A DNA stretch of 64,000 nt from assembly GCA_003559575.1 (NCBI GenBank), contig PWKZ01000147.1:35471-99470 (forward strand), given 5' to 3'. Below are positions 5,006-24,701 of the stretch, piece by piece. Both the position numbers and the translations under genes were made by a program. Every line of letters starts with the position of its first letter. The stretch's first letter is position 1. This stretch comes from Bradymonadales bacterium. GTDB lineage: Bacteria > Myxococcota_A > UBA9042 > PWKZ01. The notes under the pieces are model-generated. The model saw only the letters and a list, made by a program, of their open reading frames with translations. It made no database searches and was not told where the DNA came from.

Positions 5006-5027
5006 GCCCGTAAAAACGAGGGAGACC

Positions 5028-6614: not shown

Positions 6615-6634
6615 GGGCGAAGGAGGCGAGGCGG

Positions 6635-7765: not shown

Positions 7766-7782
7766 GGGCGGGATGAAGGACG

Positions 7783-10700
7783 ATGAACTGGTCTGAACTC
7801 ACTTGGCAAAATGGTCACTTGTGGTGGGTCGTGCCTGTCGGGGTGGGGGTCGTCGCGCTCGGCTTCCTGCTCGTTTTTCTCTGGCGACAGAGGATGCTCG
7901 AACGGATCGCCGACCCGGCCCTCCGCGAACGTTTGGTGGAGACCTTGAGCCGCCCCCGGCAGGTGCTCAAGGCGGTCATCATGACCGTCGCCGTGGCGTT
8001 GCTGCTGCTCGCGGCGCTCCGGCCCCAGTACGGGGTGCGCGAGACCGAGGTGAGAAACGTCGGGATCGACATCGCCGTGTTGCTCGACGCCAGCCAGAGT
8101 ATGCTGGTGCGGGATGTGGTGCCCGACAGGTTCGTGGCCGCCCGGCAGGAGATAAGCCGGGTGCTCGAGGGCTTGAGTGGTGGCCGGGTGGCGCTCATTC
8201 CATTTTATTTCATCCCCTTCGTGCAGTCTCCGCTCACCTCCGACTTTGACGCGTTGCAGGTCTACTTGCGTGATCTGAGGCTCGATGACATCGCCGAACC
8301 CGAGATGCGCGGGACAAGTATCGGCCGCGCGCTGATGGCCGCCGTAGGGTTGTTGGCCCAGGATCGGGAGTTGCTCTCCGAGGCCGGGGCGGGCGTCGTC
8401 CCGGATTTGGACGAGGACCACGACGTGAGCGCGATGGACGGCAGCCGCTACAAGGCGATTCTGCTATTCACCGACGGCGAGGAGCACGAGGATCTCCCCG
8501 AGGAAATCTACACGGTGGCGGAGTCCGCCGGTATCCGGATCTTCTCCGTCGGGGTCGGGACACGGGCCGGTCACGCGGTGCCCATCGTGCAAGAGGACGG
8601 CGAGGTGACCGGAGTGCTCAAAGGCGAGGATGGCCACCCAATCTTCTCGGCGCTCAACGAGGAGCTGCTGGGCGGGCTGGCCGAGCGCACCGGCGGCGCC
8701 TATTTCAACTTCTCGGGCCGCTCGGTGGCCGACGAGCTTTTGGCCGAGATCGAGAAGCTCGAAAAGAAGGAGTTCGAAGCTCAGACCCGCGATCTTGGAG
8801 AGGATCGCTACCAATTCCTGTTGCTTCCGGCGCTGATACTGCTGATGGTCGAGGGGCTCATGTCTGATCGCTTGCGGCGCAGGAGAGCCACCGATGACAA
8901 GCGGCGGCAGGGAAAGCGCGGGAGACGCCGCCTTGGCGCGCTGGTTATGGCGCTGGTGCTGCTTGCCGGTCCCCAGGCCGTCGCCTGGGATCTCTTCAAG
9001 ACCCGGCAGAGCGACGTCGAGGCCGGGAACGCTCTGCTTCGGTCCGGGAGCCCACGCGAGGCGCTCGAGGCTTATGAGCGGGCGCGGGAGGTCTTGCCCG
9101 AACAGGCCGAGTTGCACTACGCCATTGGGGTCGCGCGGCACGAACTCGGAGAATATGACATGGCGGTGCGGGCACTTGAGCGGGCGCTCGAGCGGCTCCC
9201 GGATCTCGGTGTCGCCGAGGAGACGCGCGAGCTAAGGTTCGCCGTGCTGTTTGCCCTCGGGACGACCTATGCCGCATGGGGCGAACGAGCCGAGGCGCGG
9301 GCTCTAGGGCGGGCTGCCCCCGAAGAAGAGGAGGGACCGGAGCCGCGGCAGGACGCCCGGACCAAGGCCATCGAGCGGTTCGAGCGAGCGGTTCATTTCC
9401 TCGAGCGCGCCCTGAGATTCGAGCCGGGTCACGAGGGGGCGCTCCTCAACCTCGAGCTTGCCCTGCTGCGGGTGGATCCGCCATGTCATCTTCGCAACGA
9501 TGAATACGCCCCCAACGACACGTTCGACTCCGCGGCGGCGCTCGAGGTGGAAGATCTGCAAGAGGAGCAAATGTTTCCGCTCGTGCTGTGTCCCGGGGAG
9601 GACGACTGGTTCACGTTCGAGACCGAGCCCGGGGACCGGATTTTCGCCTCCGTCAAGACCGATAACCGCGCCGCCGAGCTCCGCGTCGCGCTCTATGCGC
9701 CGGACGGCGTCAGGGTGCGCCCTCCTGCCGGCAGTGAGAGAACGATCTCGGAGCTGAGCTATCAGGAGGGGGCGCTCGCGGGGCCGGTGAGGCTGCACGT
9801 CTTTGATCCGACCGAGGAGGAGAGCGACTATCGCTTGAAACTCCGAGTCCTGCCGGCCTGCGAGCGGCTGGACGATTCGTTCGAGCCCAACGACAGCTTC
9901 GAGGAGGCGCGGCTGGTGACCGACGAAGATCGGGAGAGGCTCGCGGCGCTCAGGTTGTGCCCCGGGAACGACGACTGGTTCAAGATCGATGTGCCCGACG
10001 AGTGGAGCTTGATGGTCATCGGTGAGTTCGACATCAAGCAGGGCCTCCCCGAGCTTGCGATCTTCGACGAGCAGCAAAATGAACTCATGCGGCGCTCGTT
10101 TTCGAGTGAGGAAGCGCAGGTTGATGACAGCGCGCCTTTGATGTTGAGCTTGCTCGAACCTCCTCCCGGTCGCTACCGCTTGAAGGTGACCGGCACCCTG
10201 GACGTCGAGGCGGCCTATGGGTTGACTCTCCAGGTGGTCCCCCCTTGTCCGGAGGGGGACGATCACATGGAGCCCAACGACGAGTTCGGGGAGGCCAAGC
10301 CGTTTCCCGAGGGGGAGCCGATGTTGCTCCGCCGGTGCCCCGACAACGACGACTGGTTCGAGGTGATGGCGAGCGGCGACGAGCGACGCGTGGTGACCGC
10401 CCTGTTCGATCACGAGAGCGGCGATTTGGCGCTCGAGCTCTACGATTCCAAGCAGCAACTCGTGGGCGAGAGCGATCAGAGCAGCGCTCAAATGGGCGGT
10501 GAGGCGCTCGTGTTACCCGAGGTGCCCGAGGAGGATGAGGTGCCGTATTATGTGCGAGTCACCTCGCACGTGAACGAGAGCAACTTCTATCTGCTCGAAT
10601 TGCGCGCTCCGGACGCCGATCCGGACGCGCCTGATGACGAGCGGGACGAACAAGACGAACAGGACGAGCGGGACGAACAGGACCGGCAAGACGAACGGGA

Positions 10701-10875
10701 CGAGCGGGACGAACAGGACCGGCAGGACGAACGGGACGAGCGGGACGAACAGGACGAGTTGGATGCGATGCGAGAGGAGATGGAGAAGCTCGATCGCAAC
10801 CCACGGAATCTCGAAGCGGAGCGGGCGCGACGCACCTCGCCGCTTGGCAATGCACGCCCGACAAAGCCGTGGTAG
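7783..10875 (+). CDS. batB: BatB-like VWA protein fused to TPR (BatC-like) region, three PPC-like beta-sandwich domains and an acidic (DERDEQ)n repeat tail
   Basis: N-terminal TMs and VWA MIDAS (IAVLLDASQSM, LFTDGEEHED). TPR helices around aa 400-500. Three ~110-aa repeats each starting (Y/F/M)xPND(S/T/E)F and containing CPGxDDWF, as in pre-peptidase C-terminal (PPC) domains. C-terminal DERDEQDEQDERDEQDRQDER... repeats. Confidence 0.75.
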   Translation: MNWSELTWQNGHLWWVVPVGVGVVALGFLLVFLWRQRMLERIADPALRERLVETLSRPRQVLKAVIMTVAVALLLLAALRPQYGVRETEVRNVGIDIAVLLDASQSMLVRDVVPDRFVAARQEISRVLEGLSGGRVALIPFYFIPFVQSPLTSDFDALQVYLRDLRLDDIAEPEMRGTSIGRALMAAVGLLAQDRELLSEAGAGVVPDLDEDHDVSAMDGSRYKAILLFTDGEEHEDLPEEIYTVAESAGIRIFSVGVGTRAGHAVPIVQEDGEVTGVLKGEDGHPIFSALNEELLGGLAERTGGAYFNFSGRSVADELLAEIEKLEKKEFEAQTRDLGEDRYQFLLLPALILLMVEGLMSDRLRRRRATDDKRRQGKRGRRRLGALVMALVLLAGPQAVAWDLFKTRQSDVEAGNALLRSGSPREALEAYERAREVLPEQAELHYAIGVARHELGEYDMAVRALERALERLPDLGVAEETRELRFAVLFALGTTYAAWGERAEARALGRAAPEEEEGPEPRQDARTKAIERFERAVHFLERALRFEPGHEGALLNLELALLRVDPPCHLRNDEYAPNDTFDSAAALEVEDLQEEQMFPLVLCPGEDDWFTFETEPGDRIFASVKTDNRAAELRVALYAPDGVRVRPPAGSERTISELSYQEGALAGPVRLHVFDPTEEESDYRLKLRVLPACERLDDSFEPNDSFEEARLVTDEDRERLAALRLCPGNDDWFKIDVPDEWSLMVIGEFDIKQGLPELAIFDEQQNELMRRSFSSEEAQVDDSAPLMLSLLEPPPGRYRLKVTGTLDVEAAYGLTLQVVPPCPEGDDHMEPNDEFGEAKPFPEGEPMLLRRCPDNDDWFEVMASGDERRVVTALFDHESGDLALELYDSKQQLVGESDQSSAQMGGEALVLPEVPEEDEVPYYVRVTSHVNESNFYLLELRAPDADPDAPDDERDEQDEQDERDEQDRQDERDERDEQDRQDERDERDEQDELDAMREEMEKLDRNPRNLEAERARRTSPLGNARPTKPW
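10636..10758 (+). repeat. Tandem ~36-bp (GACGAGCGGGACGAACAGGACCGGCAGGACGAACGG-like) coding repeat, about 3.5 units
   Basis: Direct tandem repetition visible in the sequence. It encodes the acidic DERDEQDRQDER tail of the BatB-like protein and also generates spurious minus-strand ORFs (10513..10881, 10559..10891). Confidence 0.8.
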
Positions 10876-10917
10876 AAGCACCGGAGGGCAAGAGCGACGG
10901 GGAAGGCTAAGCAGGAG

Positions 10918-12699
10918 TTGATGAGAGGGCGGGTTGCCATAGCAGTCGGAGTCGTTGTGCTGTCGGTCTTCGTGGCCCGGTCGGCGCCGGCACAGGAGGT
11001 CGAGCTGTCGGTCGACCGGCGGGTGCTCTCCATGGACGAGGACCTACAGGTCGAGGTGCGCGCCACGGGCGCCTTCGATGAGCTGGTGCAGCCGGAGACC
11101 CCGGGCTTTGAGGTGGGAGGCACCTCGCGCTCCTCCGAGATCTCGATGGGGCCTTCCGGCACCGTCCAGTCGCATGTCCTCCGTTTGACTCTGGTCCCGA
11201 CCTCCCCCGGCCGCCATCGCCTGGGCCCGGCGAGTGTTCGCAGTGGAGGCCGGGAGGTGGCGCGCTCCGAGCCCGTCTTCGTGACCGTCAAGGACGTACC
11301 GCAGGTGACGGTGTCGCCGGAGCAGGCCGGCGAGCTTGAATCGCGGGCCGGCGAGCGCTATTTCCTGGTGCCGGTGTTTCCTGAGCGCCCGCTCTATGTG
11401 GGTGAACCGTTCGTGCTCAGTTACAAGCTTTATACGCGCGCCGACTCGCCGGTGACGAATGCCTCCTGGCGCGAGGTGCCGGAGCTTGCCGCCTTTTCGG
11501 TTGAGAACCTGCTCCGCTCGCAACGGCGGCGCTCACAGCGGCGCACCATCGGGCGTTATACCTATAACGTCTCCTTGCAGCTCCAGTATCTAGCGGTGCC
11601 GCTCTCGGCCGAGTCGGGCAGGGTGGAGGGAGCGGTTTTGGACGTTGTCGCCGGCGATTTTTTTCAGCGCCGGCGCTACACAGTGCGGGCGCCTTCGTTC
11701 GAACTGGACATAAGGCCGCTGCCGGCCGAGGGTCGACCACCAGAGTTTCAATCAGGCAACATCGGCCGCTTTGAACTCGAGACCGACTTGCACCCGACGA
11801 CGGTCGGCGCCGGGGAACGCGCGGTGTTGACTCTGCGAGTCACCGGCCGGGGCGCGTTGGAGAGCGTGCGGCCGCCCCGATTGCCGGAGGCGCTCGGCGC
11901 CGAGCTTCTGCCCACCGGCGATGGCGATCGGATTGAGAGGAGCGCGGCGGGGGTCGAGGGGACCCGCGTCTTCCGCTATGTTCTCGTGCCGCATGAGCCG
12001 GGCAAGCTCACGATCCCGCCAATCCGTCTGGCTTACTTCGACCCCGAGCGAGCGCGCTATCGCGTGGTGACGAGCGCGCCGATGGATCTCGAGGTCACCG
12101 GGGAGGCACCGCCGACGCGCGCGGCGGCCCTCACGGCCGAAGTCGACGAGGAGTCATTCCTTCTCGGGCTCAGGGACATTCGCGCCGAGAGCGATCTCAC
12201 CTCGCGCCGTCCTCCGGTGCGGCCCCACCGCGCGTGGTGGTTCTGGACGCTTCTGGCAGTCCCGGCGGCGCTCCTCCTGGCGGTGGAATTCGTCGTTTGG
12301 TTGAAGCGATACAAGGCGCGCACGGAGCCCCGGCGCCGGATGCGTCGCGCCGCGGCCGTTTTCCGGCGCGCCCTCAAGGCGGCGCGACGAAAGCTCCGCG
12401 CCGGCGACTCGCGCGCTTTCTTTGAGATCATCGGGACAGCGCTCAGGGAGTTTTGTTACAACCGCTTCGGACTCTCGGTGCGAGGACTGACGCACGGCCA
12501 GCTCCGTCGCCGGTTGGTCGAACTCGGCGCCGATCCGGAGTTCGCCGAGGCGGTGGTGGCGGAGCTCGAGAACACCGACTTCGCGCGCTATGCGCCCGTG
12601 AACATGCGCGATGACGAGATGCGCGGCTCCCTGGAGCGCTCGTGGCGGCTGGTGGCGTCGCTCAACCGGTTGCCGAGGAGGGCCGACGGCGATGAATAG
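10918..12699 (+). CDS. batD: BatD-like protein
   Basis: Signal peptide MMRGRVAIAVGVVVLSVFVARSAPAQ, large periplasmic region, C-terminal TM (WWFWTLLAVPAALLLAVEFVVWL) then basic cytoplasmic tail: the BatD architecture. Lies in the operon position of BatD. Confidence 0.65.
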   Translation: MMRGRVAIAVGVVVLSVFVARSAPAQEVELSVDRRVLSMDEDLQVEVRATGAFDELVQPETPGFEVGGTSRSSEISMGPSGTVQSHVLRLTLVPTSPGRHRLGPASVRSGGREVARSEPVFVTVKDVPQVTVSPEQAGELESRAGERYFLVPVFPERPLYVGEPFVLSYKLYTRADSPVTNASWREVPELAAFSVENLLRSQRRRSQRRTIGRYTYNVSLQLQYLAVPLSAESGRVEGAVLDVVAGDFFQRRRYTVRAPSFELDIRPLPAEGRPPEFQSGNIGRFELETDLHPTTVGAGERAVLTLRVTGRGALESVRPPRLPEALGAELLPTGDGDRIERSAAGVEGTRVFRYVLVPHEPGKLTIPPIRLAYFDPERARYRVVTSAPMDLEVTGEAPPTRAAALTAEVDEESFLLGLRDIRAESDLTSRRPPVRPHRAWWFWTLLAVPAALLLAVEFVVWLKRYKARTEPRRRMRRAAAVFRRALKAARRKLRAGDSRAFFEIIGTALREFCYNRFGLSVRGLTHGQLRRRLVELGADPEFAEAVVAELENTDFARYAPVNMRDDEMRGSLERSWRLVASLNRLPRRADGDE

Positions 12700-13504
12700 C
12701 CCCAAGAGAACTCTGCGCGTGACGTCCGGTGTCCTGTCTCTGCTTCTGCTCGTGCTGAGCGCGCTCCCGGCGGGGGCGGCCACCCTGCAAGAGCAGTTCA
12801 ATCGCGCCAACCAGCACTACTGGGATGGTGAGTACGAGGCCGCGCAGGAGCTCTACCAAGATCTGGCGGAGCGCTATCGGATCGAGAACCCCGAGCTGTA
12901 CCACAACCTCGCCAACAGTTACGCAAAGACCGGACAGCTCGGCGTGGCGGTGCTGTATTACAACCGCGCTCTGGCGGCGTCGCCCGGTCCCGAGACCAGA
13001 GTGGCGGCCACGGCCAACCTGGAGCGCACCCGCGCCGCTCTTGCCGCCGCCCACCAGAAGCACATCAGGCCACAGCGGGCGTTGTTCGCCGAGGGCCACG
13101 GGGTCTTCTACGCGCTCTTTCAGTTGCTCTCCGAGCCCACTCTCGCGGTGATCTTCCTGGCGCTCTTTTTCTCTCTGGTGGCGGTGCTGCTGCTGCGCCA
13201 CCTGCCTGCCTACGGTCTCAAGCGCGCCACCAAGCCGCTCGCCCTGACCTTGCTATTCCTTCTGCTCATCACCGGAGGGTGGCTGGCCGGCAACATCGCC
13301 ACTACCGAGAGCGTGCGGTCGGGGATCGTCCTCGTGGCGGACACCCCGCTCCGGGCCACGCGATTGCCCCACTCACCGCGCGTAACCTTGCCCGAGGGGC
13401 TGGAGGTGGCCATCTCGGGCGAGCCGGACGACGGCTTGTTGCGAGTGCGCCTCGCCGGCGGTCGCGAGGGGTTCGTCCCCGCGGAGAACATCGGTGAGAT
13501 CTAA
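12692..13504 (+). CDS. BatE-like TPR + SH3b-like domain protein
   Basis: ATG at 12692 overlaps the batD stop. Signal peptide and TPR (NPELYHNLANSYAKTGQLGVAVLYYNRALAASPG); central TM segments; C-terminal SH3b-like GLLRVRLAGGREGFVPAENI. Confidence 0.6.
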   Translation: MNSPKRTLRVTSGVLSLLLLVLSALPAGAATLQEQFNRANQHYWDGEYEAAQELYQDLAERYRIENPELYHNLANSYAKTGQLGVAVLYYNRALAASPGPETRVAATANLERTRAALAAAHQKHIRPQRALFAEGHGVFYALFQLLSEPTLAVIFLALFFSLVAVLLLRHLPAYGLKRATKPLALTLLFLLLITGGWLAGNIATTESVRSGIVLVADTPLRATRLPHSPRVTLPEGLEVAISGEPDDGLLRVRLAGGREGFVPAENIGEI

Positions 13505-13560
13505 CTCGTGGGATCCGCGGGCATTGAAGGTCGAGACGCGGAGCGCCGGAACAAGGTCCG

Positions 13561-14469
13561 CTAGGGGGTGAGTGGGACGGAGTCCAGCGTGGGGTGGCGA
13601 AACGAGTAACCAAAGTCGGTGGCGCGTTGAGGCACGACCCGGCGGCTCGCCAAAAGCTCGCCGGCGAAGCCCCCAAGCGCCAGCCGCAATGCCGGCGCGG
13701 GGGTTGGGAGAACAGAAGGGCGCCCTAGCGCCCGCCCTAGCCTGCGGGCAAACTCGCCCTGGCGCACGGAGTTCGGGGCGACCACGTTCATGGGGCCGCT
13801 TAGCTCCGGCGCCTCGAGCGCCAGCGCAATCATGCCCACCACGTCGTCGCGATGGATCCAGGACCACCACTGCCGCCCGCCTCCCAACGGTCCTCCCAGC
13901 CCATAACGGAACAAGGGGAGCATGGCCGCCAACGCGCCGCCTTTGGGGTGCAGGACAATCCCCGTGCGCAAAAGGGTCACGCGGACTCCAAGCGCCTCCA
14001 TCGAGGTGGCGGCGGCCTCCCACTCGCGACAGACCTCCGCAAGGAAAGAGTCGTCGGGGGGCGAAGTTTCGTCGAGCAGCTCGTCACCGCGCGATCCGTA
14101 GTAGCCGGTGGCGCTACCGGAGACGAGCACGCTCGGCCTCTCGCTCGCCGGGAGCTCGGCCACAGCCGTCACCAAGCTCTTGGTCCCGACTATCCGACTC
14201 TCCTTGATGCCGCGCCGTTTGGCCGAAGTCCAGCGCCCACGGACGGTCTCTCCGGCCAGGTTGACTATCCCCTCGCACCCGAGCAACGCTTGGCGAGGCG
14301 GCGGTGCGGCGCAGTCGCGCCACGAGTATACGTCGTCGACCCCCGGGAGCTGAGCGCGGGTCTTGCCCGCGTCGCGGCTCAATACGACCACCGAGTGCCC
14401 TCCGGCACACAGTTGCTCCACCAGCGCTCGACCGATGAAACCACTACCGCCCGTCACCATCACACGCAT
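13561..14469 (-). CDS. NAD-dependent epimerase/dehydratase family protein (TIGR01777/YfcH-like, DUF1731 C-terminus)
   Basis: N-terminal Rossmann MRVMVTGGSGFIGRALVEQL. C-terminal region (RRLGRALGRPSVLPTPAPALRLALGGFAGELLASRRVVPQRATDFGYSFRHP) matches the DUF1731 pattern of YfcH-type SDRs. Confidence 0.75.
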   Translation of the reverse strand: MRVMVTGGSGFIGRALVEQLCAGGHSVVVLSRDAGKTRAQLPGVDDVYSWRDCAAPPPRQALLGCEGIVNLAGETVRGRWTSAKRRGIKESRIVGTKSLVTAVAELPASERPSVLVSGSATGYYGSRGDELLDETSPPDDSFLAEVCREWEAAATSMEALGVRVTLLRTGIVLHPKGGALAAMLPLFRYGLGGPLGGGRQWWSWIHRDDVVGMIALALEAPELSGPMNVVAPNSVRQGEFARRLGRALGRPSVLPTPAPALRLALGGFAGELLASRRVVPQRATDFGYSFRHPTLDSVPLTP

Positions 14470-14569
14470 GCGTTACCTCCCGAGAAGAGCGGCCGCGTTC
14501 GGCACCCTGTCGACTGTCGCCGAGCGTGACCATACAGAGCATCTTGACCACCACGCTAGCACTTTTCCC

Positions 14570-15976
14570 CTAGAGTTTCAGGAAACGACCCATCTTCATC
14601 CCGAGCTTCATCATCCCGCGGCGTGTCAGGAGGTGCCGCGCGACATAGCCCAGGCGGCGAGGGTGGCCGTAAAATGCCGCCAGCGCTCCGAGCTGAATCG
14701 CGCGCAGTGTGCCCGCTCCGATGAGACTCGCTCGATCACTGAAGTTGCGCGCGTTGTAATAGTCGATGCCGGTGTTGGCGTCGTTGCAGAGGGCGAAGCG
14801 GTTGTCGGCGCTCATTTGAGTGGCGATGTGTGTTCCGGGGAGGACGGACGTCAGGGAGAACGTCGCCTCCGTCAGATCCAGCCGCGTGGCGAGCTTGACG
14901 GTCGCCAACATCTCTCTGAGATCCTCGGTCGGTGAGCCGAGCATGAAAAACCCCAGCGCATGGGCGCCGCGATGTCGCAGGTGCGCGAGCAGCGACTCGA
15001 GCCGGTCCAGATCGACTCGTTTGTGGAGCACTTCCTCCCGAATTCGACGGCTCCCGGCCTCGATCCCCAGATGGATGCTTCGCATTCCGCTCGCGACCAT
15101 TGCGTCGACGAGCTCATGGTCGAGGCAATCGACACGCGAGTTGCAGCCCCATAGAATCGGCCGCCGCATTTGCAGCAGCGCTTCGCATAGCTCCAAGAGC
15201 CAGCGCCGCCGCGTCGTCAGGGTGTCGTCGTGAAAGAAAATCCCGCGGACACCGTAGCGCTGTTGGAGAGCTTCCACCTCGGCGACGATGCTCGCGGGGC
15301 TGCGGCGTCTTGGGCCGCGCCCGAAGAGCGAGTCCAGTGTCGGTTGGCAGTAGGCACATTGTTCGGCGCAGCCACGGGACGCGACTATATTGGTCCCCAC
15401 GGTGGCGACGTCCAGGGTGTCCAAATAAGGCCAGCGGTGGAGGTAGCGCTCCATTGGGAGGAGATCCCAGGCGGGGAATGGGAGCGCGTCGAGGTCCGGC
15501 GGCCGGTACGGCGCGCACGATCTCTTCGGGGGGCCGCCGGCGCTCTCGCGCCACACGACGTTCGGCACGTCCCCAAAGGGCGCGCGCGCGATGGCGCGGT
15601 CGACCACGTCGGCGATGATGGGCTCGCCCTCCCCAAGGACTATGGCGTCGAAGGCGGGCAGCAGTGTTTCGGCGGCCACCGTGGCGTGGGGGCCTCCGGC
15701 CACCACCGAGGCGCCGCCCTCGCGCGCCGCTTCCGCCACCCGTGACGCGACTAACGGCATCAGCGAGTCCACATAGACTCCGACGACATCGCCGCGGGCG
15801 GCCCGTACGGCTTGAAGCAGCTTCTTTTCACCGCCGAGGAAGGTGCCGTCCACGATCCGGATGTCGAGCGCGGGCCGCGCCTTGCGCAGCGCCGCGGCGA
15901 GGTAGGCGACGCCGAGCGGCGGATCGCCGGTGCGATAGGTTGAGCGGGGGAAAACCAATACGACTCGATGGGCCAT
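14570..15976 (-). CDS. B12-binding domain radical SAM enzyme (class B rSAM)
   Basis: Start MAHRVVLVFP (ATG on minus strand at 15974-15976). The ORF track's 724-aa call includes about 256 codons of non-coding-looking leader. Cobalamin-binding-type N-terminal domain, then CxxxCxxC cluster motif ASRGCAEQCAYC and a TIM-barrel-like core. Confidence 0.8.
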   Translation of the reverse strand: MAHRVVLVFPRSTYRTGDPPLGVAYLAAALRKARPALDIRIVDGTFLGGEKKLLQAVRAARGDVVGVYVDSLMPLVASRVAEAAREGGASVVAGGPHATVAAETLLPAFDAIVLGEGEPIIADVVDRAIARAPFGDVPNVVWRESAGGPPKRSCAPYRPPDLDALPFPAWDLLPMERYLHRWPYLDTLDVATVGTNIVASRGCAEQCAYCQPTLDSLFGRGPRRRSPASIVAEVEALQQRYGVRGIFFHDDTLTTRRRWLLELCEALLQMRRPILWGCNSRVDCLDHELVDAMVASGMRSIHLGIEAGSRRIREEVLHKRVDLDRLESLLAHLRHRGAHALGFFMLGSPTEDLREMLATVKLATRLDLTEATFSLTSVLPGTHIATQMSADNRFALCNDANTGIDYYNARNFSDRASLIGAGTLRAIQLGALAAFYGHPRRLGYVARHLLTRRGMMKLGMKMGRFLKL

Positions 15977-16086
15977 TGAGCCTCTCTGGACGGCGGCCTT
16001 AAGGGGGTACCGCGACCCCGACGTGCGCGCCTGAGCGCGAAGGTAGCAAACGGGCCAAGTGCGCACAATGCCTTGATCATATAATC

Positions 16087-16237
16087 CATAATCGTCGGTT
16101 CGTTCTGAGGAGACCCGCCAAGTGGAGGCGCGTGCATGTGCACGGAAACAAGCCGTTCTCAGGCGCAGTCCAACGCAGAGCCTACGTCGAGCACTAATTA
16201 TTCTGCAGGTGACGCCGCAGATGGGCCGACGATTATG
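16087..16237. repeat. Copy 1 of a ~150-175 nt repeated intergenic element with perfect 12-bp terminal inverted repeats (CATAATCGTCGG...CCGACGATTATG); candidate structured sRNA or MITE
   Basis: Second copy at 61178..61352 in the same orientation. Shared blocks: TTCGTTCTGAGGA, GTGGAGGCGCGTGCATGTGCA(C/A)GGAAACAAG, CTACGTCGAGCACTAATT, GCAGGTGACGCCGCAGATG. The central block is variable. Contains the hairpin CGTGC-ATGT-GCACG. Lies in the divergent promoter region of the two radical SAM genes. Confidence 0.6.
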
Positions 16238-16373
16238 ACCTTGAGCCGCTGGGCGGGGGGGTGGTAGGGTGAAAACGGGTGGTTGCCCCTGGTGTGGTGC
16301 GTTTCGGGCTCGAGCCGCTCTCGTGCCGGGGGAGCGCTTTTTTGCGAGCTTTCCCGGTGGTGGAAGCGCCGTT

Positions 16374-17861
16374 ATGGCTCCAGTCAAAGGCTCCGGTCTT
16401 CGAGTCCTCTTTGTCAACGGACTGCTGGGCGGTGATTTTAGTGCGCTGGACATCGGCGTCACCGTGCTCGCCTCATGGCTGAACCAGAAAACCCGCCATC
16501 GGGCGGCCATCGCCGATCTCGTCTTCCATTCCAGGCATTGGCAGCGGCATCTGCATCGCGAGATTGAACGCAAGCGACCCGACGTGATCGCGCTCTCGTG
16601 CAACACGATGTACATGAAGTACGTCCGGCGTATCGTCGCCGAGGTGCGGCGACGGCATACGCTCCCGATCGTTTTGGGGGGGCACCACGCGAGCATCGAG
16701 CCGGCCGAGGTTTTTGCGCTCCCCGGTGTCGACGCGGTCGTCATCGGCGACGGAGAGCTGCCGCTCCAAGGCTACCTGGATCGGTTGAGTGAAGGCGGCA
16801 ACTTCGAGGGCGTCCCCGGGCTGTGGGTCCGTGAGCGCGGCCCCCTTGGGCGCGAGGTGCGCAATGAAGGCGGCGCCTTCCTCGAGGACATCGATCAGCT
16901 CCCCTATCTCGAGTGGGATCTCTGGGACGACCTCGATCGCTATTTTTATTTTTTGGGGATGATTTACGCGCAGGGCAGCCGCGGGTGCCCCTACCGCTGC
17001 ACGTTCTGCGACGCTCAGGGCTACGCGCGGGCGCTGCGGGGCACCGGCAGCTACTTCCGTCTGCGCGATCCCGAGGCGTTCGTCGCCGAACTCGAGCATT
17101 ACTATCACCGCTATCACCATAGGGGCGCCCGGCTGTTCCAGCTCTTCGATCCCGTCTTCACGATGGACGACGACTGGCTCACTCGTTTCTCCGCCGAGTA
17201 CCGCCGGCGCGGGCTCCATGAGCGGATGCGCTACTCGGCCTTCTCGCGGATCGACCATCTCTCCGAGGAGAAAGTCGCGCTGCTTGCCCGCTCCGGTTGC
17301 GCGCTATTGCGGGTCGGTATCGAGGCGGGCGACGATCACATTCGCATGGAGGTCTACAAAAAGAAGATCGGCAGCGCGACGATTCGGCGGATCTTTGCCG
17401 CTGCCAAACGTCAGGGGCTGGACTTCACAGCGTTTTTTATTTTCGGAGGGCCACAGGAGACGCACACGTCATTCTTCAAGACCACGCGGCTGGCGTGGGA
17501 GCTGGACGCCGCGCGCTCGGGGTTCTTCGTCTACAAGCCGTTCACCGCCGAAGGGCGCGCCCAGATCGAGGCCGCCGGCGGCGGTATCGACTCGGTGCGC
17601 TACGCGGCCGCCGACAATATCGCCTGGGGTGGCGCGACCTCTGGGAAAGGCTGGGGGCCCCGGTCTCTCGAAGCCTGGCAGCTCGCGGCCTACGGGCTGA
17701 CTTTTGGGCGCCGGTGGGTGCGCATGATTCGCCGCCGTGGGCTGCCCGCGTACACGACGGCGCTGGCGCGTTACATGGCGCGCGGCCTCCGGCTGGGCTT
17801 GGACTGGCGCTATATGGCCATGTACTTCCACATCTACGAGGGCGACAACGTCGATCAGTGA
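16374..17861 (+). CDS. B12-binding domain radical SAM enzyme (class B rSAM), paralogue of 14570..15976
   Basis: ATG at 16374 with GGTGGAAG upstream; MAPVKGSGLRVLFVNG begins the B12-binding domain; CxxxCxxC motif GSRGCPYRCTFCD. The ORF track's N-terminal extension from 16269 is probably not translated. Confidence 0.8.
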   Translation: MAPVKGSGLRVLFVNGLLGGDFSALDIGVTVLASWLNQKTRHRAAIADLVFHSRHWQRHLHREIERKRPDVIALSCNTMYMKYVRRIVAEVRRRHTLPIVLGGHHASIEPAEVFALPGVDAVVIGDGELPLQGYLDRLSEGGNFEGVPGLWVRERGPLGREVRNEGGAFLEDIDQLPYLEWDLWDDLDRYFYFLGMIYAQGSRGCPYRCTFCDAQGYARALRGTGSYFRLRDPEAFVAELEHYYHRYHHRGARLFQLFDPVFTMDDDWLTRFSAEYRRRGLHERMRYSAFSRIDHLSEEKVALLARSGCALLRVGIEAGDDHIRMEVYKKKIGSATIRRIFAAAKRQGLDFTAFFIFGGPQETHTSFFKTTRLAWELDAARSGFFVYKPFTAEGRAQIEAAGGGIDSVRYAAADNIAWGGATSGKGWGPRSLEAWQLAAYGLTFGRRWVRMIRRRGLPAYTTALARYMARGLRLGLDWRYMAMYFHIYEGDNVDQ

Positions 17862-17910
17862 ACCCCTGCGCCCCCCACCCCCCCACCTGCACCGGCATTC
17901 GGCTGCTCAT

Positions 17911-19692
17911 TCAGCGTGGTGAGAGGCGGTAGACTCCCATCGTGACTGTGTCTGCCGGGACCAAAAAGCGTCCGTCAGGGCGGCTCTCGACGGTCGTCGC
18001 GGCGATCGGGGTGGCTTTGAAGCGGCTCAGCACATCACGACACAGATCTCGCTCGACCACCTCGGGAGGCGGCTCTCGATCGAACCGATAGCAGGAGGCG
18101 CCGCGGTAGAAGAGCGTAATCTTGTCATCCGGGAGCGCCTGGAGGGCGAGTAATTCGCTTGCCGGCATAGGCGCGACGATGAGCCCGGCGGCTTCAAACA
18201 GGTTGGTCGGTGGCGCGGTGATGATGCGCCCCTGCCCGGCGGGGGAGTCGAGGTGAGCGAGGAGAATGGGGAGGCCTGGCGGATCTTCGGCGAGCCGCCG
18301 GGCGGCGTGTCTGGACTGCTCCCATGCCACCTGCGGATCGCGCCGCCACTCGAGCGAATCGAACGCCAGGAGCGGTTGTGCGGCCAGGACGAGGACGAAC
18401 AAGACCGTCACCGCTTGACGCGGGCGACCGGGCGCCACCGCGCGCCTCACCCCCTCGAGCGCGACACCGGTGAGCAAGAGCAGTGGCAGCAGCATGTTGG
18501 CTTGCAGTCGAAACGCCTCCGTCGTCGAGTTGTGGTATGGCAGCCAGATGAGCGCGCCGATTAAAAACCACGCCGGCAGGAGAGCCGACTCGCGGGGACG
18601 CGTCACCAGCAGCGCGACGAAACCTAACGCCGCCGACGCCGGGACGAGCGGCAAAAGAAGTTTGGGATCCCAGAGGAGGCAGGACGAGGCGCTCGTGAGC
18701 GCGCTCAGCGCCTCCATGAAGTGATCTCCCTTGGGCGCCATCGCCTGGGTCGTGAGGCTTTGCCAGATAGTCACGATTCGCGGCAGAAGGGCCGCGCCGC
18801 CGGCCACGACGAACAGCCCAGTGGCGCCCCAGGGCAGCGGCCGGCGTGTGCGGCGGCCCACTAGAGCCAGAGTCATCGGCAGGAGCAGAAGCAGCGGTAG
18901 CGTCTCGGCGCGGATGTTCATGGCCGGCACGGTGGCGACCGTAGCGAGCGCGAGATCGAGCACCCGCCCGTACTGAACGAACCGGATCGCGCTGAACAGG
19001 GCGAGGCTCAATAGGACACAGAAGAGCACATAGGGGCTCTCGCTGCCCGCCACTCGAGCAAGCCAGGGGGAAAACGCCACCGCCGAGGCGGCAAACAGCG
19101 CCGCGCCGGCGCGCTCCGTCAGGGCCCAGATGAGCGCGAAGGCCAGCGGCACCAGCAGCGCGCCCAGAAGCGCGTTGATGAAGAGGACGGTGGTTGGGCG
19201 TGGCAGAGGGCGGCTCATGATCCAAAAAAAGACCCGCGCCGCCTCTCCTTGAAGGCGAAAGTAGCCTGTGTACATGTGGCCGTCCAAGTATGCCGCGATC
19301 TCGTGTGGCCCGTGATCGTTCTCCTTGATGGGGGCGTGAGGGACGACAACGCCTCGGAGCAGCGCGGCCAGAAAAAGGAGCAGCGCCAGCGCAAGTTTGA
19401 CCCGGGGAGAGAGGGCGGCGGCGCCCCTCTCGCGACTTACCATCTTGGCCGACAGGAGCACCAGCAGGAGCGCGAAGATGGCCCCGAGGGCGATTCGCAG
19501 CCCATCGTTGGGCTTCTCCGAGCCGGCCTCGATTCCGTCGGGGGGCCCGGCTTCGCCCACTGCCGCAACCGGCTCAGCGATGGCCGGCGGAGCGATCAAA
19601 GTGGTGAGTGTCAGCACCGCGAGCGTGAGCGCGACAGCCAGCCGGGCCACTCCCATGCCGCCTCCTGGTGGTGGTGCGCGAGTCGTCGTCAT
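17911..19692 (-). CDS. Polytopic membrane glycosyltransferase, GT-C fold (ArnT/PMT family-like)
   Basis: More than 10 predicted TM helices over the N-terminal two-thirds and a C-terminal soluble domain. Likely start MTTTRAPPPGGGMGVARLAVALTL (ATG minus strand at 19692); the ORF extends to 19851. The family assignment is by architecture and is tentative. Confidence 0.55.
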   Translation of the reverse strand: MTTTRAPPPGGGMGVARLAVALTLAVLTLTTLIAPPAIAEPVAAVGEAGPPDGIEAGSEKPNDGLRIALGAIFALLLVLLSAKMVSRERGAAALSPRVKLALALLLFLAALLRGVVVPHAPIKENDHGPHEIAAYLDGHMYTGYFRLQGEAARVFFWIMSRPLPRPTTVLFINALLGALLVPLAFALIWALTERAGAALFAASAVAFSPWLARVAGSESPYVLFCVLLSLALFSAIRFVQYGRVLDLALATVATVPAMNIRAETLPLLLLLPMTLALVGRRTRRPLPWGATGLFVVAGGAALLPRIVTIWQSLTTQAMAPKGDHFMEALSALTSASSCLLWDPKLLLPLVPASAALGFVALLVTRPRESALLPAWFLIGALIWLPYHNSTTEAFRLQANMLLPLLLLTGVALEGVRRAVAPGRPRQAVTVLFVLVLAAQPLLAFDSLEWRRDPQVAWEQSRHAARRLAEDPPGLPILLAHLDSPAGQGRIITAPPTNLFEAAGLIVAPMPASELLALQALPDDKITLFYRGASCYRFDREPPPEVVERDLCRDVLSRFKATPIAATTVESRPDGRFLVPADTVTMGVYRLSPR

Positions 19693-19980
19693 CGTGGAAG
19701 GGGCCCGCGGCAGAAAACTCGCGCGGACCTCCCCCGCCCAATCCTCGCCGATTTGAGGCGTAAGGTCCACGACGACCAGCAAAGAATTGGCAGCGGGCTC
19801 GCTTCTGCCCTCCGGTAGATGCGCTTTCATTCCGCGTACATGCAACTGCACCGAGATCCTCGGTGGTCGGTTTGAGAGGGCAAAAAGAGAGGTTTATTCG
19901 GGTTGCGAATCGTTCGACCTTCGTGGTAACAAAAAGGACCGCGTTGGGGAGGTCCTGGCAAGGTCTCGGCATCACTATGG

Positions 19981-21384
19981 GTGGAAGCTGTCATGCGCGC
20001 TACGTTTGATGATCAATGGGAAGAGGCGCTCGCCCTGGTTCGCAACAAAATCTCTAACGACCTGCAATATGGCCACTGGATCACCCCCCTCGAGATCTGC
20101 TCGCGAAGCAACGGCACCATCGAGCTTGGAGTCTCCGACGCGCTGTTCGCCGAGTGGTTTGAGAGCGAAGGCTACGCCAAGATCTTGCGCGAGAGTTTGC
20201 ACGAGGTGACGGGCTTGGACTTTGCGTTTGACTACAAAGTGCTCGGCGCGAACGGCGAGACTCACGAGGATTCCAACGAGGGCCAGCTCGAGTTCGAGCT
20301 GGCGCCGACAGGCTCATCCAAGCAGTCCCCGCGCCCATCTCTCGCCTCTCCCGGATCGGGAGTCAGCTTCATCGAAGATTACCGCTTCGAGAGCTTCGTC
20401 AAGGGAGACAGCAACAAGCTGGCTTATGCCGCCAGCGCCGCGGTGGCCGATAAACCGGGCAAGACCTACAACCCGCTGTTCGTCTATGGGGGCGCCGGGC
20501 TTGGCAAGACCCACCTGCTGCACGCCATCGGCAATGAGATGATGGCGCGCAACCCGCAAATGCGGGTCTTGTACGTCACGAGCGAGATCTTTTTCAACGA
20601 TCTGGTCGAGTCGATCCGGCGCAATCGGATGCATGTGTTTCGGGAGCGCTACCGGGACGCCTGCGACGCCCTGCTGATCGATGACGTGCAGTTCTTTGCC
20701 CGCAAGGGGCACACCCAGGACGAGTTCTTTCACACCTTCAACGCGCTGCACGCCGCCAACAAGCAGATCGTGTTCACGAGCGACCGCTTCCCCGAGGAGA
20801 TCGAGAACCTCGAGGAGCGCCTGCGGAGCCGCTTTCAGTGGGGGCTGACCACCGACATCAAGCCGCCGGTCATCGAGACCAGGATCGCCATTTTGGCCAA
20901 GAAGGCCGAGCTGCGCGGACTCGACTTGCCCGATGACGTGGCGTTCTTCATTGCCAGCCGAATTCGCTCCAACGTACGTCGCCTCGAAGGGGCGCTGACC
21001 AGCCTTGCGGCTTATACATCGCTGCACAACGTGCCCATCAACAAAGAGGTCGCGAAGAAGGCGCTCAGGGAGTTCCTCCCCGGCGAAGAACGGCCGGTGA
21101 CGGCCGAGCAGATAATCAAGCTGGTGGCGACCCACTACCACATCAAGCCCCAGGACATGAAAGGCCAAGGGCGACAGAGACAGGTGACCCGTCCGCGCCA
21201 GGTGGCCATGTACCTGACGCGCCGGTTTACGACATTGTCGTTCCCCGAGATTGGAGCGCGCTTCGGCAACCGCGATCACACCACTGTCATGAGCGCTGTG
21301 CGGAAGGTGGAGACCCTGATTGATCAGGAGGACATGGAGACCAAGCGCGCCGTTGAGGTCTTGTCCCGCCAGCTCGAGTCCTGA
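19981..21384 (+). CDS. dnaA: Chromosomal replication initiator protein DnaA
   Basis: GTG at 19981 (alternative ATG at 19993). AAA+ Walker A GGAGLGKTHLLHAIGN, Walker B LLIDDVQF, sensor FTSDRFPEEI, and C-terminal DNA-binding helix-turn-helix (RQVAMYLTRRFTTLSFPEIGARFGNRDHTTVMSAVRKV). Confidence 0.9.
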   Translation: MEAVMRATFDDQWEEALALVRNKISNDLQYGHWITPLEICSRSNGTIELGVSDALFAEWFESEGYAKILRESLHEVTGLDFAFDYKVLGANGETHEDSNEGQLEFELAPTGSSKQSPRPSLASPGSGVSFIEDYRFESFVKGDSNKLAYAASAAVADKPGKTYNPLFVYGGAGLGKTHLLHAIGNEMMARNPQMRVLYVTSEIFFNDLVESIRRNRMHVFRERYRDACDALLIDDVQFFARKGHTQDEFFHTFNALHAANKQIVFTSDRFPEEIENLEERLRSRFQWGLTTDIKPPVIETRIAILAKKAELRGLDLPDDVAFFIASRIRSNVRRLEGALTSLAAYTSLHNVPINKEVAKKALREFLPGEERPVTAEQIIKLVATHYHIKPQDMKGQGRQRQVTRPRQVAMYLTRRFTTLSFPEIGARFGNRDHTTVMSAVRKVETLIDQEDMETKRAVEVLSRQLES

Positions 21385-21593
21385 GCCCGGCGAGGCCCGC
21401 ACTTTAATTCTCCAGCACACCTAGAGTTGACTTTTTGGGCCAACTAGGCCAGTGAGTCATACGGCCTCCTGCGGGCGGCGGGAGATTCGGGGTTTTTTTT
21501 GCACGACCAACCCCTCGACGCGCCAAGCGACCCCGCCATTATTCGCGGGGAAGCAGGAGAACCGCATTCATCGCGCAACTTTGGAGATAGACT

Positions 21594-21743
21594 GTGAAGC
21601 GCACATATCAACCCAGCAATTTGAAACGACGCAGGACCCATGGCTTTCGCGAGCGGATGAGCACTCGCGGGGGGCGGGCGGTATTAAACGCTCGGCGCCG
21701 CAAGGGACGCAAACAGTTGGCCGTGGGGACGCCCAAGAAGTAG
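21594..21743 (+). CDS. rpmH: 50S ribosomal protein L34
   Basis: Not in the ORF track (49 aa). GTG start; translation [44 protein letters not shown] matches the L34 consensus (MKRTFQPSxLKRxRxHGFRxRM...GRxVLxxRRxKGR). Confidence 0.85.
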
Positions 21744-21746
21744 GTT

Positions 21747-22112
21747 TTGGGGCCCAAAACGGTGACTGATTTCGGATATCCACCGGCGCTTCGTTTGCGC
21801 AAACGGGGCCATTTCCTCAGAACCATGAAGTTCGGGCGGAGGTTTTTTTCGCCGAGCTTTATTCTGTACGCCAATCCGAACTCTGGTCCTCACACCCGGT
21901 TGGGTATCACGGTGACCAGAAAGATCGGCAACGCTGTAACGCGCAACCGCTTCAAACGGCTCGTGCGTGAGGCTTTTCGGCTACACCCGGAGTGGTTCGA
22001 CAGGCCGGTTGATCTGTTGGTGATAGTCAAGCGGGGGCGCTCCCCGGAAGGGCTGGGGCAAGTGGTGCGCGAGCTGCAAGAGGTGCTGGGGCGCTGCTTG
22101 GCTGAACGGTGA
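21747..22112 (+). CDS. rnpA: Ribonuclease P protein component
   Basis: Immediately follows rpmH; basic protein with the RNR-like motif region KIGNAVTRNRFKRLVREAFR; canonical rpmH-rnpA linkage. True start may be slightly downstream. Confidence 0.8.
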   Translation: MGPKTVTDFGYPPALRLRKRGHFLRTMKFGRRFFSPSFILYANPNSGPHTRLGITVTRKIGNAVTRNRFKRLVREAFRLHPEWFDRPVDLLVIVKRGRSPEGLGQVVRELQEVLGRCLAER

Positions 22113-22118
22113 AGTGAT

Positions 22119-22409
22119 ATGCAGTCCGAGTCGCGGGCAGAAAAGTTGTTGGGTGCTCTAGTGGTTTGGCCCCGGTGGCTCACGATCGCGCTCCCGGTCC
22201 TTTTGGTGCTGTTGTATCAGCGTTTGCTGCGCCCGCTACTGCCGGGAGCTTGCCGGTTTTATCCTACGTGTAGTGACTACGCCATCCTCGCCTTGCGCCG
22301 CCACGGCCTCTTGAGAGGCGGGGCGCTCGCAGTTTGGCGCTTGTTGCGCTGCCACCCCTTTCACCCTGGCGGTGTCGATCCAGTGCCGACAGCCGGAGAT
22401 AGACGATGA
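22119..22409 (+). CDS. yidD: Membrane protein insertion efficiency factor YidD
   Basis: Motif [28 protein letters not shown] is the YidD signature (CRFxPTCSxY); canonical position between rnpA and yidC. Confidence 0.8.
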
Positions 22410-24652
22410 CCAGACGGCTGCCGTTGTTCGTTATGCTTGCGGCGGGATTTGCTTTCCTGGTGCTCTTTGCGATCAATGAGTCTTCTCGCCCTGACGAATC
22501 CGACGGCGACCAAGCCCAAGGTGAACGACCGGGGACCATGTCCCCCGGAGAGCGCGACTCCGAGGCCCCTCGCGAAGCCCAAGGCGGCGCCTCCGGGACC
22601 TCCTCACAGCGCCACGCGCTGGAGGAGACCTGGAAGGTCAAGAACCGGATCGACGATGATGACGGCTATCTGGGGGTGCTCTCCAGCATTGGAGCGACCT
22701 TCTCGAGCGTCCAGATGCTCAAGGAGCAATACCGCCAGGCGGCCAACGAGGAGCGGCTGAATCCGCTGCCGGAGGTGTTGCGCGGTCGGATCCCCGAGCG
22801 CTTTTACGAGAACTCGCTGTTGGAGCTCGTCTGGGCGTGGGATCCGGAGAGCTACCCGTTTCGTATTCGTTTTGATGCGCTCCAACACAACGGCGAGGTG
22901 CGCCGCGTCCTGCGAGGGCCGGCCGAGGATGGGCAGATCGATCCCACCGACCGCTCTGTCTTCCGCATCGCCGAGTCGGAGGTTCAATTCACCACCACCT
23001 ACCCCGAAGTGCAGCGGGGCGATCAAATCGAACTGACGGTCACCGGCCGGAGCGGCGAGCCAAGCCTCCACACCATCGAAGAGGTGCGCAAGCGGCGGCT
23101 GGTCGTCTCCCCGAGGTTGCCGGAGCTTGCCGACGATGAGGTGGTGAGTTACCGGGTGCTGGCCGAGGGCCCTTTTCAGACCATCTATCACCGCGACGCA
23201 AGGTACACCCTGGTCTCCCGGGACGAGCAGCGCCTCGTGTTCGTGTGGCCGAACCCCGAGAGCGACACGAGTGACCTGTTCATCGAGCGCGAGCTGCGCC
23301 TGACCGGGCCCTACGACCACGAGCTGGATATCGTGCTTCACAACTTCGGCGACCAGGAGGTGACGGGACGCATCACCATGCTGGTGCGTGGGTTTCAACC
23401 ACCGGTGCGCTCGGGCGGGATCTTTTCGGGGCCGCCACCCGATCAGCGCTCGGCCATGTGTCACGCGGGGGGCAAGGCTCACCGCGCTTCACTCGCGGAC
23501 TTGCTCGCCAAGCCGCGGGATCCCGACTGGAGCCCTTCCGGCGACGTCTCCTGGGTAGGGATCGAGAGCCGCTACTTCTTGCTGGCGGCCGTGCCGCTCA
23601 ATTTGAGTAACAGCCAATGCTTCATGCAGGCGTTTCGGAGCGAACCCCCGGAGGGGGTCGCCACGGCGGGGGTCGGGCGGACCAAGAGTTGGGTCATTCC
23701 GCCGGCCAAGACCACCTGCCTGCCCTCCTGGATGCCGCGCCGTCCCGGCTTCGAGCACTGTGAGACCATGCTGGCGCGGTTGGGTCTCGAGGGCGACACC
23801 ACCAACCGCGTCATCGACGACACCTACGATGAGGTGCGACGGACACTCGACGGCGCCAAGCTCGAGGAGGCGCGCGAGGCGCGCGATGCGCTCATGGGCC
23901 GGCGGGCCACCTTGCATCGTTATCTGCTGTATGCCGGCCCCAAGGATCTGGCCGAACTTCAGGCTCAGGACGCCGGCCTGGAGGACAGCATCGACTTTTG
24001 GGTGGTCGGGATCATCGCCAAACCGATGGTCCACATGCTCAAGATGTTTCACGGCTGGATCCCCAACTGGGGGGTCGCCATTGTCCTGTTGACCCTGCTC
24101 GTCAAAGTGGCGCTGCTTTATTTCACGCACAAGAGCTTCAAGTCGATGCATGCGATGCAGAAGCTCAAGCCCCACATGGACGAGCTGAGGGCCAAGTACA
24201 GCAATGATCGCCAGAAGCTCAACGAAGAGATGATGGCGCTCTACAAGCGGCACAAGGTCAACCCCTTGGGCGGTTGCCTCCCCATGCTGCTTCAAATGCC
24301 GGTGTGGATTGCGCTCTATCGATCAATCTATGCGTCGGTGGAACTTTACCAGGCGCCGTTGTTCGGCTGGATTCAGGACATGTCGGCGCCCGATCCCTAT
24401 TACGTGCTCCCGCTCGTCATGGGGCTCTCGATGTTTTTGCAGCAACGGCTGATGCCGCCGGCGATGGACGCGCAGCAGGCGCGAATCATGATGTACATGA
24501 TGCCCATCATGTTCACCGTTTTCATGCTCTTTTTGCCCGCCGGCCTGGTGCTCTATATTTTCGTCAACACTCTGCTCGGGATGGCTCAACAGTATTATAT
24601 CAAGCGCAAGGGTGCGACCGAGCCGGCCGCAGCAGGAGCGGCGCGAGGGTGA
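22406..24652 (+). CDS. yidC: Membrane protein insertase YidC
   Basis: Overlaps the yidD stop. N-terminal TM, large periplasmic domain, and the conserved C-terminal five-TM core ([28 protein letters not shown]...[14 protein letters not shown]...[20 protein letters not shown]...[21 protein letters not shown]). Confidence 0.85.
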
Positions 24653-24701
24653 TCTCGAGGGGTCGGATGCCGCAGACGCGGCATCTTGAGATCCCCATCA
24701 G

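Follow-up and report, generated by a model that had tools for sequence, protein, structure and literature searches.

What do two radical S-adenosylmethionine (SAM) proteins, encoded back to back between housekeeping operons of a Bradymonadales bacterium, act on, and which of their neighbors work with them? We addressed this question in a 64,000-nucleotide stretch of contig PWKZ01000147.1 (assembly GCA_003559575.1, positions 35,471 to 99,470 of the forward strand; hereafter the window), whose sequence is identical to contigs of assemblies GCA_007134265.1 and GCA_003566035.1. An initial annotation, made from the sequence without database searches, had proposed that the two proteins, rSAM1 and rSAM2, belong to a lipid- or glycan-modification system together with a short-chain dehydrogenase/reductase (SDR) on one side and a membrane glycosyltransferase of fold class C (GT-C) on the other. 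All four genes were confirmed at their coordinates by open reading frame (ORF) listing and translation and by Pfam and NCBIfam scans. The two radical SAM genes are conserved as a pair across distant lineages, and glycosyltransferase genes recur beside them. We tentatively favor a reading in which the pair tailors a carbohydrate, probably one linked to a carrier or lipid, that the GT-C enzyme would then transfer outside the membrane.

A conserved pair of radical SAM proteins

Both proteins have the architecture of class-B radical SAM enzymes, as the initial annotation had recognized; enzymes of this type form a very large and mostly uncharacterized group. rSAM1 (14570..15976, minus strand, 468 residues) matches the B12-binding domain PF02310 at 46.4 bits and the Radical_SAM domain PF04055 at 65.7 bits, and rSAM2 (16374..17861, plus strand, 495 residues) matches the same domains at 61.8 and 55.5 bits, all above the gathering scores of 32.1 and 29.5, respectively. 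Within the Radical_SAM core, each carries a CxxxCxxC motif, the signature of a [4Fe-4S] cluster: C203-x3-C207-x2-C210 in rSAM1, invariant across 57 homologues, and C205-x3-C209-x2-C212 in rSAM2, invariant across 5 orthologues. The N-terminal Rossmann-type B12-binding domain is identified in both proteins by PF02310; the overall fold was compared at the level of structure for rSAM1, whose predicted model (predicted local distance difference test, pLDDT, 95.8) shows an N-terminal Rossmann/B12-type domain and a basic C-terminal helical bundle.

The nearest solved structure to both proteins is AprD4 (phmmer E 3e-22 for rSAM1 and 1.5e-16 for rSAM2). AprD4 is also the best match of the rSAM1 model in a Foldseek search of the PDB (6fd2; E 2e-21, template-modeling (TM) score 0.72–0.77, 24% identity), followed by TsrM, MgmA, CysS, OxsB, and TokK at TM scores of 0.65–0.72. 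AprD4 binds no cobalamin despite its Rossmann-like domain (PMC12931638), so a match to the B12-binding domain is no proof of cobalamin use. The initial annotation had called both window enzymes cobalamin-binding; the domain is there in each, and the term is best read as a statement of architecture that derives from the domain match.

An NCBIfam scan placed neither protein near the cut-off of any curated family. ApyD is the best match of both, at 151 bits for rSAM1 and 119 for rSAM2 (cut-off 750), followed for one or the other by AprD4 (NF033070; 104.5 and 69.1, cut-off 500), HpnJ (98.8 and 65.1, cut-off 577.6), BchE (96 and 81, cut-off 481), the "ladderane-type" lipid radical SAM family TIGR04072 (92 and 110.8, cut-off 360), and HpnR (61 and 60, cut-off 650); models for HpnP and Tes were absent among the matches. 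The NF033070 scores place both proteins outside the AprD4 family, and in these profile searches neither fell into a characterized orthologous group.

rSAM1 and rSAM2 are 29% identical over 408 residues and belong to separate orthologous lineages, as would be expected if each catalyzed a step of its own, in line with the earlier proposal that two modestly similar enzymes catalyze separate reactions. Approximately 80 orthologues of rSAM1 share 35–65% identity with it, all metagenomic and bearing generic names only, and one homologue (P0018, 56% identity) is labeled Myxococcota. Of the two, rSAM2 is the better conserved. Both proteins end in very basic helices, with 12 (rSAM1) and 10 (rSAM2) lysines plus arginines in the last 60 residues, and the C-terminal region of rSAM2 is strongly amphipathic (top hydrophobic moment 0.73 at residues 437–454, net charge +5). 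Such helices would be compatible with peripheral membrane binding.

To place the pair in context, loci were fetched from other genomes and metagenomes (numbered L003, L005, and so on; all come from metagenome-assembled genomes (MAGs) or metagenomes). Scans with an rSAM2 alignment yielded at least nine further orthologous loci among 160. The others held paralogues at 22–31% identity, which dominate these scans because back-translated patterns are generic. Ten independent loci with sufficient flanking sequence were counted as pair loci: the window, L003, L005, L007, L008, L010, L011, L013, L091, and L094. In every one of the ten listed, an rSAM1 orthologue adjoins an rSAM2 orthologue (47–76% identity), at GC contents that span 28–75%. 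In L007, L008, L010, L011, L013, and L091, rSAM1 immediately precedes rSAM2 in the same orientation; in L094 a single GT-C gene lies between them, all on one strand; and the genes are divergent in the window and in L003 and L005, the two closest relatives of its pair. rSAM1 and rSAM2 are thus the conserved core and the sole universal part of these ten loci.

This distribution reaches well beyond Myxococcota. MAG labels among the pair loci include Planctomycetia and Fibrobacteraceae, and the low-GC contigs look archaeal, with Hjc and PolB encoded in L091 and a Methanosarcinales label on L011. rSAM1 orthologues also occur without rSAM2 (L009, L090, and L092); rSAM2 without rSAM1 was found in none of the loci listed. 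That rSAM1 sometimes stands alone and rSAM2 never does fits two sequential steps in which rSAM2 depends on rSAM1, and would suit sequential action better than an obligate rSAM1–rSAM2 complex. Adjacency of all four window genes was not found in other genomes.

A GT-C-fold membrane protein and the recurrent glycan context

The membrane protein encoded beside rSAM2 (17911..19656, minus strand) has 581 residues by public gene calls, which start it at 19656; the alternative start, an ATG farther upstream at 19692, would give 593. It comprises approximately 11 hydrophobic segments followed by a C-terminal soluble alpha/beta domain of about 140 residues. The protein has no Pfam or NCBIfam match, including no direct match to the GT-C Pfam families PMT_2, PMT, or STT3, and a word-indexed homologue search returned only the query itself. 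An exhaustive HMMER scan recovered 62 full-length remote homologues, the best at 37% identity and the others at 20–34%. PMT_2 was detected in 33 and PMT in 6 of 57 homologues scanned, and the family profile weakly matches STT3A (E 0.002) and PglB. The link between the window protein and PMT_2 is therefore transitive, running through homologues only.

An AlphaFold2 model built with the family alignment (pLDDT 89.8, predicted TM score 0.90) matched GT-C enzymes at ranks 1–31 of a Foldseek search of the PDB, with a probability of 1.00, E-values down to 1e-6, and TM scores of 0.39–0.52. These comprise STT3A/B, ALG9, ALG12, ALG3, ArnT (5f15, E 3.5e-5), PglB, AglB, DPY19, EmbA/B/C, Pmt1/2, and AftA. 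The predicted model confirms a GT-C fold, with a polytopic N-terminal module and a soluble extracytoplasmic domain, and so upholds the GT-C label of the initial annotation for a protein that domain libraries miss. After an early transmembrane helix of the modeled 581-residue protein, the family carries a conserved H-E-N-x-H-G motif, which reads K111-E112-N113-D114-H115-G116 in the window protein; the usual first-loop motif of GT-C enzymes is DE/DxD. On the strength of the modeled fold, we regard the protein as glycosyltransferase-like and as a putative enzyme.

BLAST and tblastn with this protein over all fetched loci found no orthologue, a consequence of low sensitivity, since a hidden Markov model of the family (alignment A3) did find relatives. 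Two lie in L094, one between rSAM1 and rSAM2 (7374-8918, 178 bits) and one at 12832-14460 (161 bits). L011 likewise has two, one just upstream of a flavoprotein–rSAM1–rSAM2 run (2939-4516, 142 bits) and one just downstream of rSAM2 (8798-10345, 47 bits), and in L010 a relative overlaps the end of rSAM2 (11421-12749, 73 bits; Pfam PMT_2 9e-16). At L092, a PMT_2 gene (8565-10004) overlaps the start of the lone rSAM1 orthologue. Besides the window, three loci thus have a GT-C relative adjoining the pair, and a fourth has one adjoining a lone rSAM1. The family profile found no match in L003, L005, L007, L013, or L091, and L008 has a PMT_2 gene of its own approximately 7 kb from the pair.

The wider surroundings are also rich in sugar-handling genes. 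Of the 10 pair loci, 8 (all except L003 and L005) have glycosyltransferase genes within 10 kb; in L013, a Glyco_trans_1_2 gene directly follows rSAM2. Small family 2 glycosyltransferases (GT2s) of 216–244 residues occur in other pair loci and best match, below cut-offs, the AglJ, dolichyl-phosphate hexose transferase, PpgS, and ArnC class. Nucleoside diphosphate (NDP)-sugar epimerase/dehydratase SDRs, DegT aminotransferases, SPASM radical SAM proteins, and extra B12-type radical SAM paralogues recur as well. A flavoprotein of the amine-oxidase/HpnE/CrtI superfamily (NF005560, PRK07233, titled a hypothetical protein; 274–307 bits, cut-off 252) adjoins the pair in L008, L011, L091 (8730-10004), and L094, and is absent from the window. 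Taken together, the link between the widely distributed pair and GT-C or GT2 glycosylation genes is recurrent and not universal.

A second polytopic family adjoins rSAM1 in L005 (7856-9886, minus strand) and L090 (11413-12819, plus strand). Its two members are related to each other (E 5e-22) and have no Pfam match, and a word-indexed search with the 676-residue L005 protein returned only the query. Comparison by hhalign detected no relation between the window membrane-protein family and the polytopic neighbors in L005 (unk676), L009 (unk664), L007 (unk589), and L008 (unk546). In the L005/L006 region (1-21401), the pair lies within a striking cluster that also comprises two genes of the nitrogenase-like Oxidored_nitro type, one for a NifH-like ATPase, and no fewer than seven other radical SAM genes.

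The locus in its genome

The SDR gene (13561..14469, minus strand, 302 residues) follows rSAM1 after 100 bp in the same orientation and may be co-transcribed with it in this genome. Its assignment to the YfcH/TIGR01777 family was correct (322.5 bits, cut-off 207.35); it contains Pfam Epimerase and DUF1731 (PF08338, 53.6 bits) domains, and its nearest PDB entries are 3oh8 and human SDR39U1 (4b4o). A tblastn search of the nine other pair loci and 170 additional loci found no orthologue. The SDR is therefore a lineage-specific neighbor of rSAM1 and not one of its conserved partners. By analogy with AprD3, which serves AprD4, it could at most reduce a keto intermediate. The idea of a conserved four-gene system accordingly does not hold: the SDR fails to recur, and the GT-C protein has no detectable homologue in L003 or L005.

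Between the divergent rSAM1 and rSAM2 genes lies a 397-bp spacer (15977..16373), the approximately 400-bp region with a terminal-inverted-repeat element described in the initial annotation. The element occupies 151 bp (16087-16237) and has perfect 12-nt terminal inverted repeats (CATAATCGTCGG), with arms at 16087-16098 and 16226-16237 and 127 nt between them. A second copy at 61179-61353 is about 24 nt longer with a conserved interior, and the element gave 4 matches against 0.22 expected by chance. It resembles a miniature inverted-repeat transposable element (MITE). The second copy lies between two large plus-strand ORFs, 58422-61148 and 61397-63631. Riboswitch or other RNA control of the spacer was considered and set aside: an Rfam search of 13000-22500 at E-value thresholds gave as its sole match a sub-threshold hit to AsdA in dnaA. 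That hit, to an antisense RNA of dnaA mRNA, covers 20485-20567 on the minus strand, within the coding sequence of dnaA; at 44.9 bits (E 1e-6) it falls short of the gathering score of 52, and it may merely reflect conserved dnaA sequence.

The flanks are housekeeping genes, which speaks against the annotated view of a dedicated modification neighborhood in this genome. To the left, a sigma factor gene is followed by a MoxR-DUF58-BatA-BatB-BatD-TPR operon. This "aerotolerance"-type operon (2853-13504, plus strand) is complete, lies directly left of the SDR gene, encodes a BatB protein with VWA and TPR domains (1030 residues), and includes, between DUF58 and BatA, a gene of no assigned type; a 528-residue ORF inside it (5028-6614) has no Pfam match. 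To the right, dnaA, rnpA, yidC, and jag (19981-25460) directly adjoin the GT-C gene and are followed by M23, FtsX, and FtsE genes, beside which a 749-residue minus-strand ORF (28330-30579) has no Pfam match. Because it adjoins dnaA, the locus is presumably close to the origin of replication. The GT-C gene and rSAM2 are transcribed toward each other, and the GT-C gene and dnaA diverge from a common spacer of approximately 290–325 bp. As the initial annotation had noted, the annotated flanks contain no precursor-peptide, polyketide synthase, or non-ribosomal peptide synthetase genes.

Candidate substrates and known precedents

What, then, might the pair act on? In the reading that we tentatively favor, rSAM1 and rSAM2 would modify a carbohydrate by radical chemistry in two consecutive steps. 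The carbohydrate would probably be membrane-anchored, with a polyprenyl-phosphate-linked sugar or the head group of a glycolipid as the most plausible candidates. The GT-C-fold glycosyltransferase would then deliver the modified sugar to an acceptor on the outer surface of the cytoplasmic membrane. Where other loci hold fuller clusters, the donor would be made by a polyprenyl-phosphate GT2; here the module would be cut down to rSAM1, rSAM2, and a single, very divergent GT-C protein. Candidate chemistries are methylation, an AprD4-like dehydration or deoxygenation in which the local SDR might act as reductase, and an HpnJ-like ring rearrangement (PMC13459092). Pair conservation, the GT-C link, the glycan context, AprD4 as nearest structure, and the basic C-terminal helices all support this reading, and HpnI-HpnK-HpnJ (PMC13459092) and AprD4/AprD3 (PMC5461906) provide precedents. 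The earlier suggestion of a membrane-lipid or glycoconjugate target thereby divides: the glycoconjugate half gains from the context that recurs in other phyla, and the lipid half, with its analogy to HpnP-type enzymes, found no specific support.

Several observations weigh against a carbohydrate substrate handed to the GT-C enzyme. In L003, the closest relative, the pair sits among unrelated genes with no glycan genes within 10 kb, and in L005 no homologue of the GT-C protein is detectable and a different, unclassified polytopic protein takes its place. The K-E-N-D-H-G first-loop motif of the window protein is unusual, and its catalysis is only predicted. Its closest homologues (P0122, P0123, and P0124) have no adjoining radical SAM genes, on contigs that are short. 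rSAM2 and the GT-C gene are not co-transcribed, because they converge, and the window has no GT2, flavoprotein, DegT, or NDP-sugar gene for donor synthesis and no SPASM gene. Neither radical SAM family has a characterized member, and the whole case is one of guilt by association in MAGs, read from gene order and sequence.

A rather unlikely account is that the four window genes have no common function. The pair would then act on a soluble metabolite, a cofactor, or a natural-product intermediate, and the SDR and GT-C genes would merely happen to share with it the interval that separates the Bat operon from dnaA. Outside the window, the SDR does not accompany the pair in any of the loci compared, the region upstream of the GT-C gene is common with dnaA, and the membrane-protein family is also found without radical SAM genes; L003 fits, and the MITE-like element shows that the locus has been disturbed in the past. 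Against mere chance stands the GT-C or PMT_2-like gene that directly adjoins the pair in the window, L010, L011, and L094, and the lone rSAM1 in L092, at GC contents of 65, 40, 28, 30, and 48%, respectively. By a rough estimate, such repeated adjacency is hard to obtain by chance if the GT-C family is present only a few times per genome.

Tailoring of lipids is, in our judgment, unlikely. Here the enzymes would methylate, cyclize, or cross-link membrane-lipid or polyprenyl-carrier chains in the manner of HpnP/HpnR, GrsA/B, Hgm, or TIGR04072-like proteins, and the glycosyltransferases would be fellow travelers in envelope loci. rSAM2 partially matches TIGR04072, and both proteins partially match HpnJ and HpnR, but all these scores fall far under their cut-offs. 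The flavoprotein beside the pair in four loci belongs to the same superfamily as HpnE and CrtI, L007 contains FabA-like genes, the basic C-terminal helices, amphipathic in rSAM2, would suit a lipid substrate too, and B12-type enzymes are among the known lipid radical SAM proteins (10.1101/2023.10.20.563219; PMC13459092). The window itself has no lipid-synthesis genes, however; the recurrent neighbors (GT2, GT-C, NDP-sugar SDR, and DegT) handle sugars, and AprD4, the nearest structure, is a sugar enzyme. Far less probable is maturation of a ribosomally synthesized peptide, which the pair would C-methylate or cross-link as ApyD, PoyC, and other B12-type radical SAM peptide maturases do. ApyD leads the NCBIfam matches, though at scores far from its cut-off, and short unannotated ORFs do occur (94 residues beside rSAM2 in L003, 40–79 residues in L007). 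Yet the L003 ORF has no counterpart elsewhere, the window spacer is occupied by the repeat element, and no peptide recognition element, leader peptidase, dedicated exporter, or conserved small ORF was found across the loci.

A broader proposal extends the carbohydrate reading, and we hold it as doubtful: the pair and the divergent PMT_2-like GT-C protein could define an undescribed route of envelope-glycan tailoring. Radical chemistry (C-methylation, deoxygenation, or ring contraction) would remodel a polyprenyl-phosphate-linked sugar at the cytoplasmic face, and the GT-C protein would transfer it afterwards. In many lineages the route would also include the PRK07233-type flavoprotein and a polyprenyl-phosphate GT2, and it would be common to bacteria (relatives of Myxococcota-labeled MAGs, Planctomycetia, and Fibrobacteraceae) and low-GC, archaeal-looking lineages. 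Its parts are known kinds of enzyme, and their combination was not met in the literature searched. If the proposal is right, uncultivated bacteria and archaea would have in radical chemistry a general means of making unusual sugars for their envelopes; the pair would represent two new enzyme families, and a PMT_2-like GT-C family missed by domain libraries would gain its first functional context. The window alone is a modest result, a reduced three-gene version of the module between housekeeping operons.

Four kinds of known system bear on these proposals. The cobalamin-dependent radical SAM methylases of sugars (GenK, GenD1, and Fom3-type enzymes) have their domain architecture and fold class in common with the pair, and TsrM, TokK, CysS, and MgmA match the rSAM1 model at TM scores of 0.65–0.71; no family-level match links them, and methylation is just one of several chemistries possible for rSAM1 and rSAM2. 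To our knowledge, all sugar-directed class-B radical SAM enzymes described so far come from antibiotic or hopanoid pathways.

The three-component systems that glycosylate from polyprenyl-phosphate sugars (ArnC/ArnT, GtrB/GtrC, CsbB/YfhO, and Dpm1/PMT) resemble the locus in the GT-C fold of the window membrane protein and in the AglJ/PpgS/ArnC-class GT2s that accompany GT-C genes in other pair loci. The window protein differs from their transferases in its lack of a Pfam match and in its first-loop motif, and no GT2 or flippase is encoded nearby. We know of no such system that includes radical SAM enzymes, and a literature search for B12-type radical SAM proteins joined with GT-C, polyprenyl, or polysaccharide turned up nothing relevant.

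AprD4 offers a parallel on the side of chemistry. This radical SAM 1,2-diol dehydratase has a sugar ring as its substrate and, together with the NADPH-dependent reductase AprD3, accomplishes the C3'-deoxygenation of paromamine (PMC5461906). AprD4 shares the two-domain architecture of rSAM1 and rSAM2, and the window order of rSAM1 followed by an SDR would mirror this dehydratase-plus-reductase logic (PMC5461906). The window locus differs in having no aminoglycoside genes and in its SDR, which belongs to the extended SDRs of the YfcH type and does not recur with the pair. AprD4 itself does not bind cobalamin (PMC12931638); the window enzymes are putative cobalamin binders by domain match.

A parallel in general logic lies in hopanoid synthesis, where HpnI, HpnK, and HpnJ turn a hopanoid-linked glucosamine into a cyclitol ether. 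This pathway differs from the window locus in several respects: the HpnJ model scores the pair far under its cut-off, the window has no hopanoid genes, HpnI is a GT2 and the window enzyme a GT-C, and a single radical SAM enzyme takes part there compared with two here. Nonetheless, the arrangement in which a glycosyltransferase loads a sugar onto a membrane lipid and a B12-domain radical SAM enzyme then rearranges the lipid-linked sugar (PMC13459092) follows the same general logic as the one we propose for rSAM1, rSAM2, and the GT-C protein.

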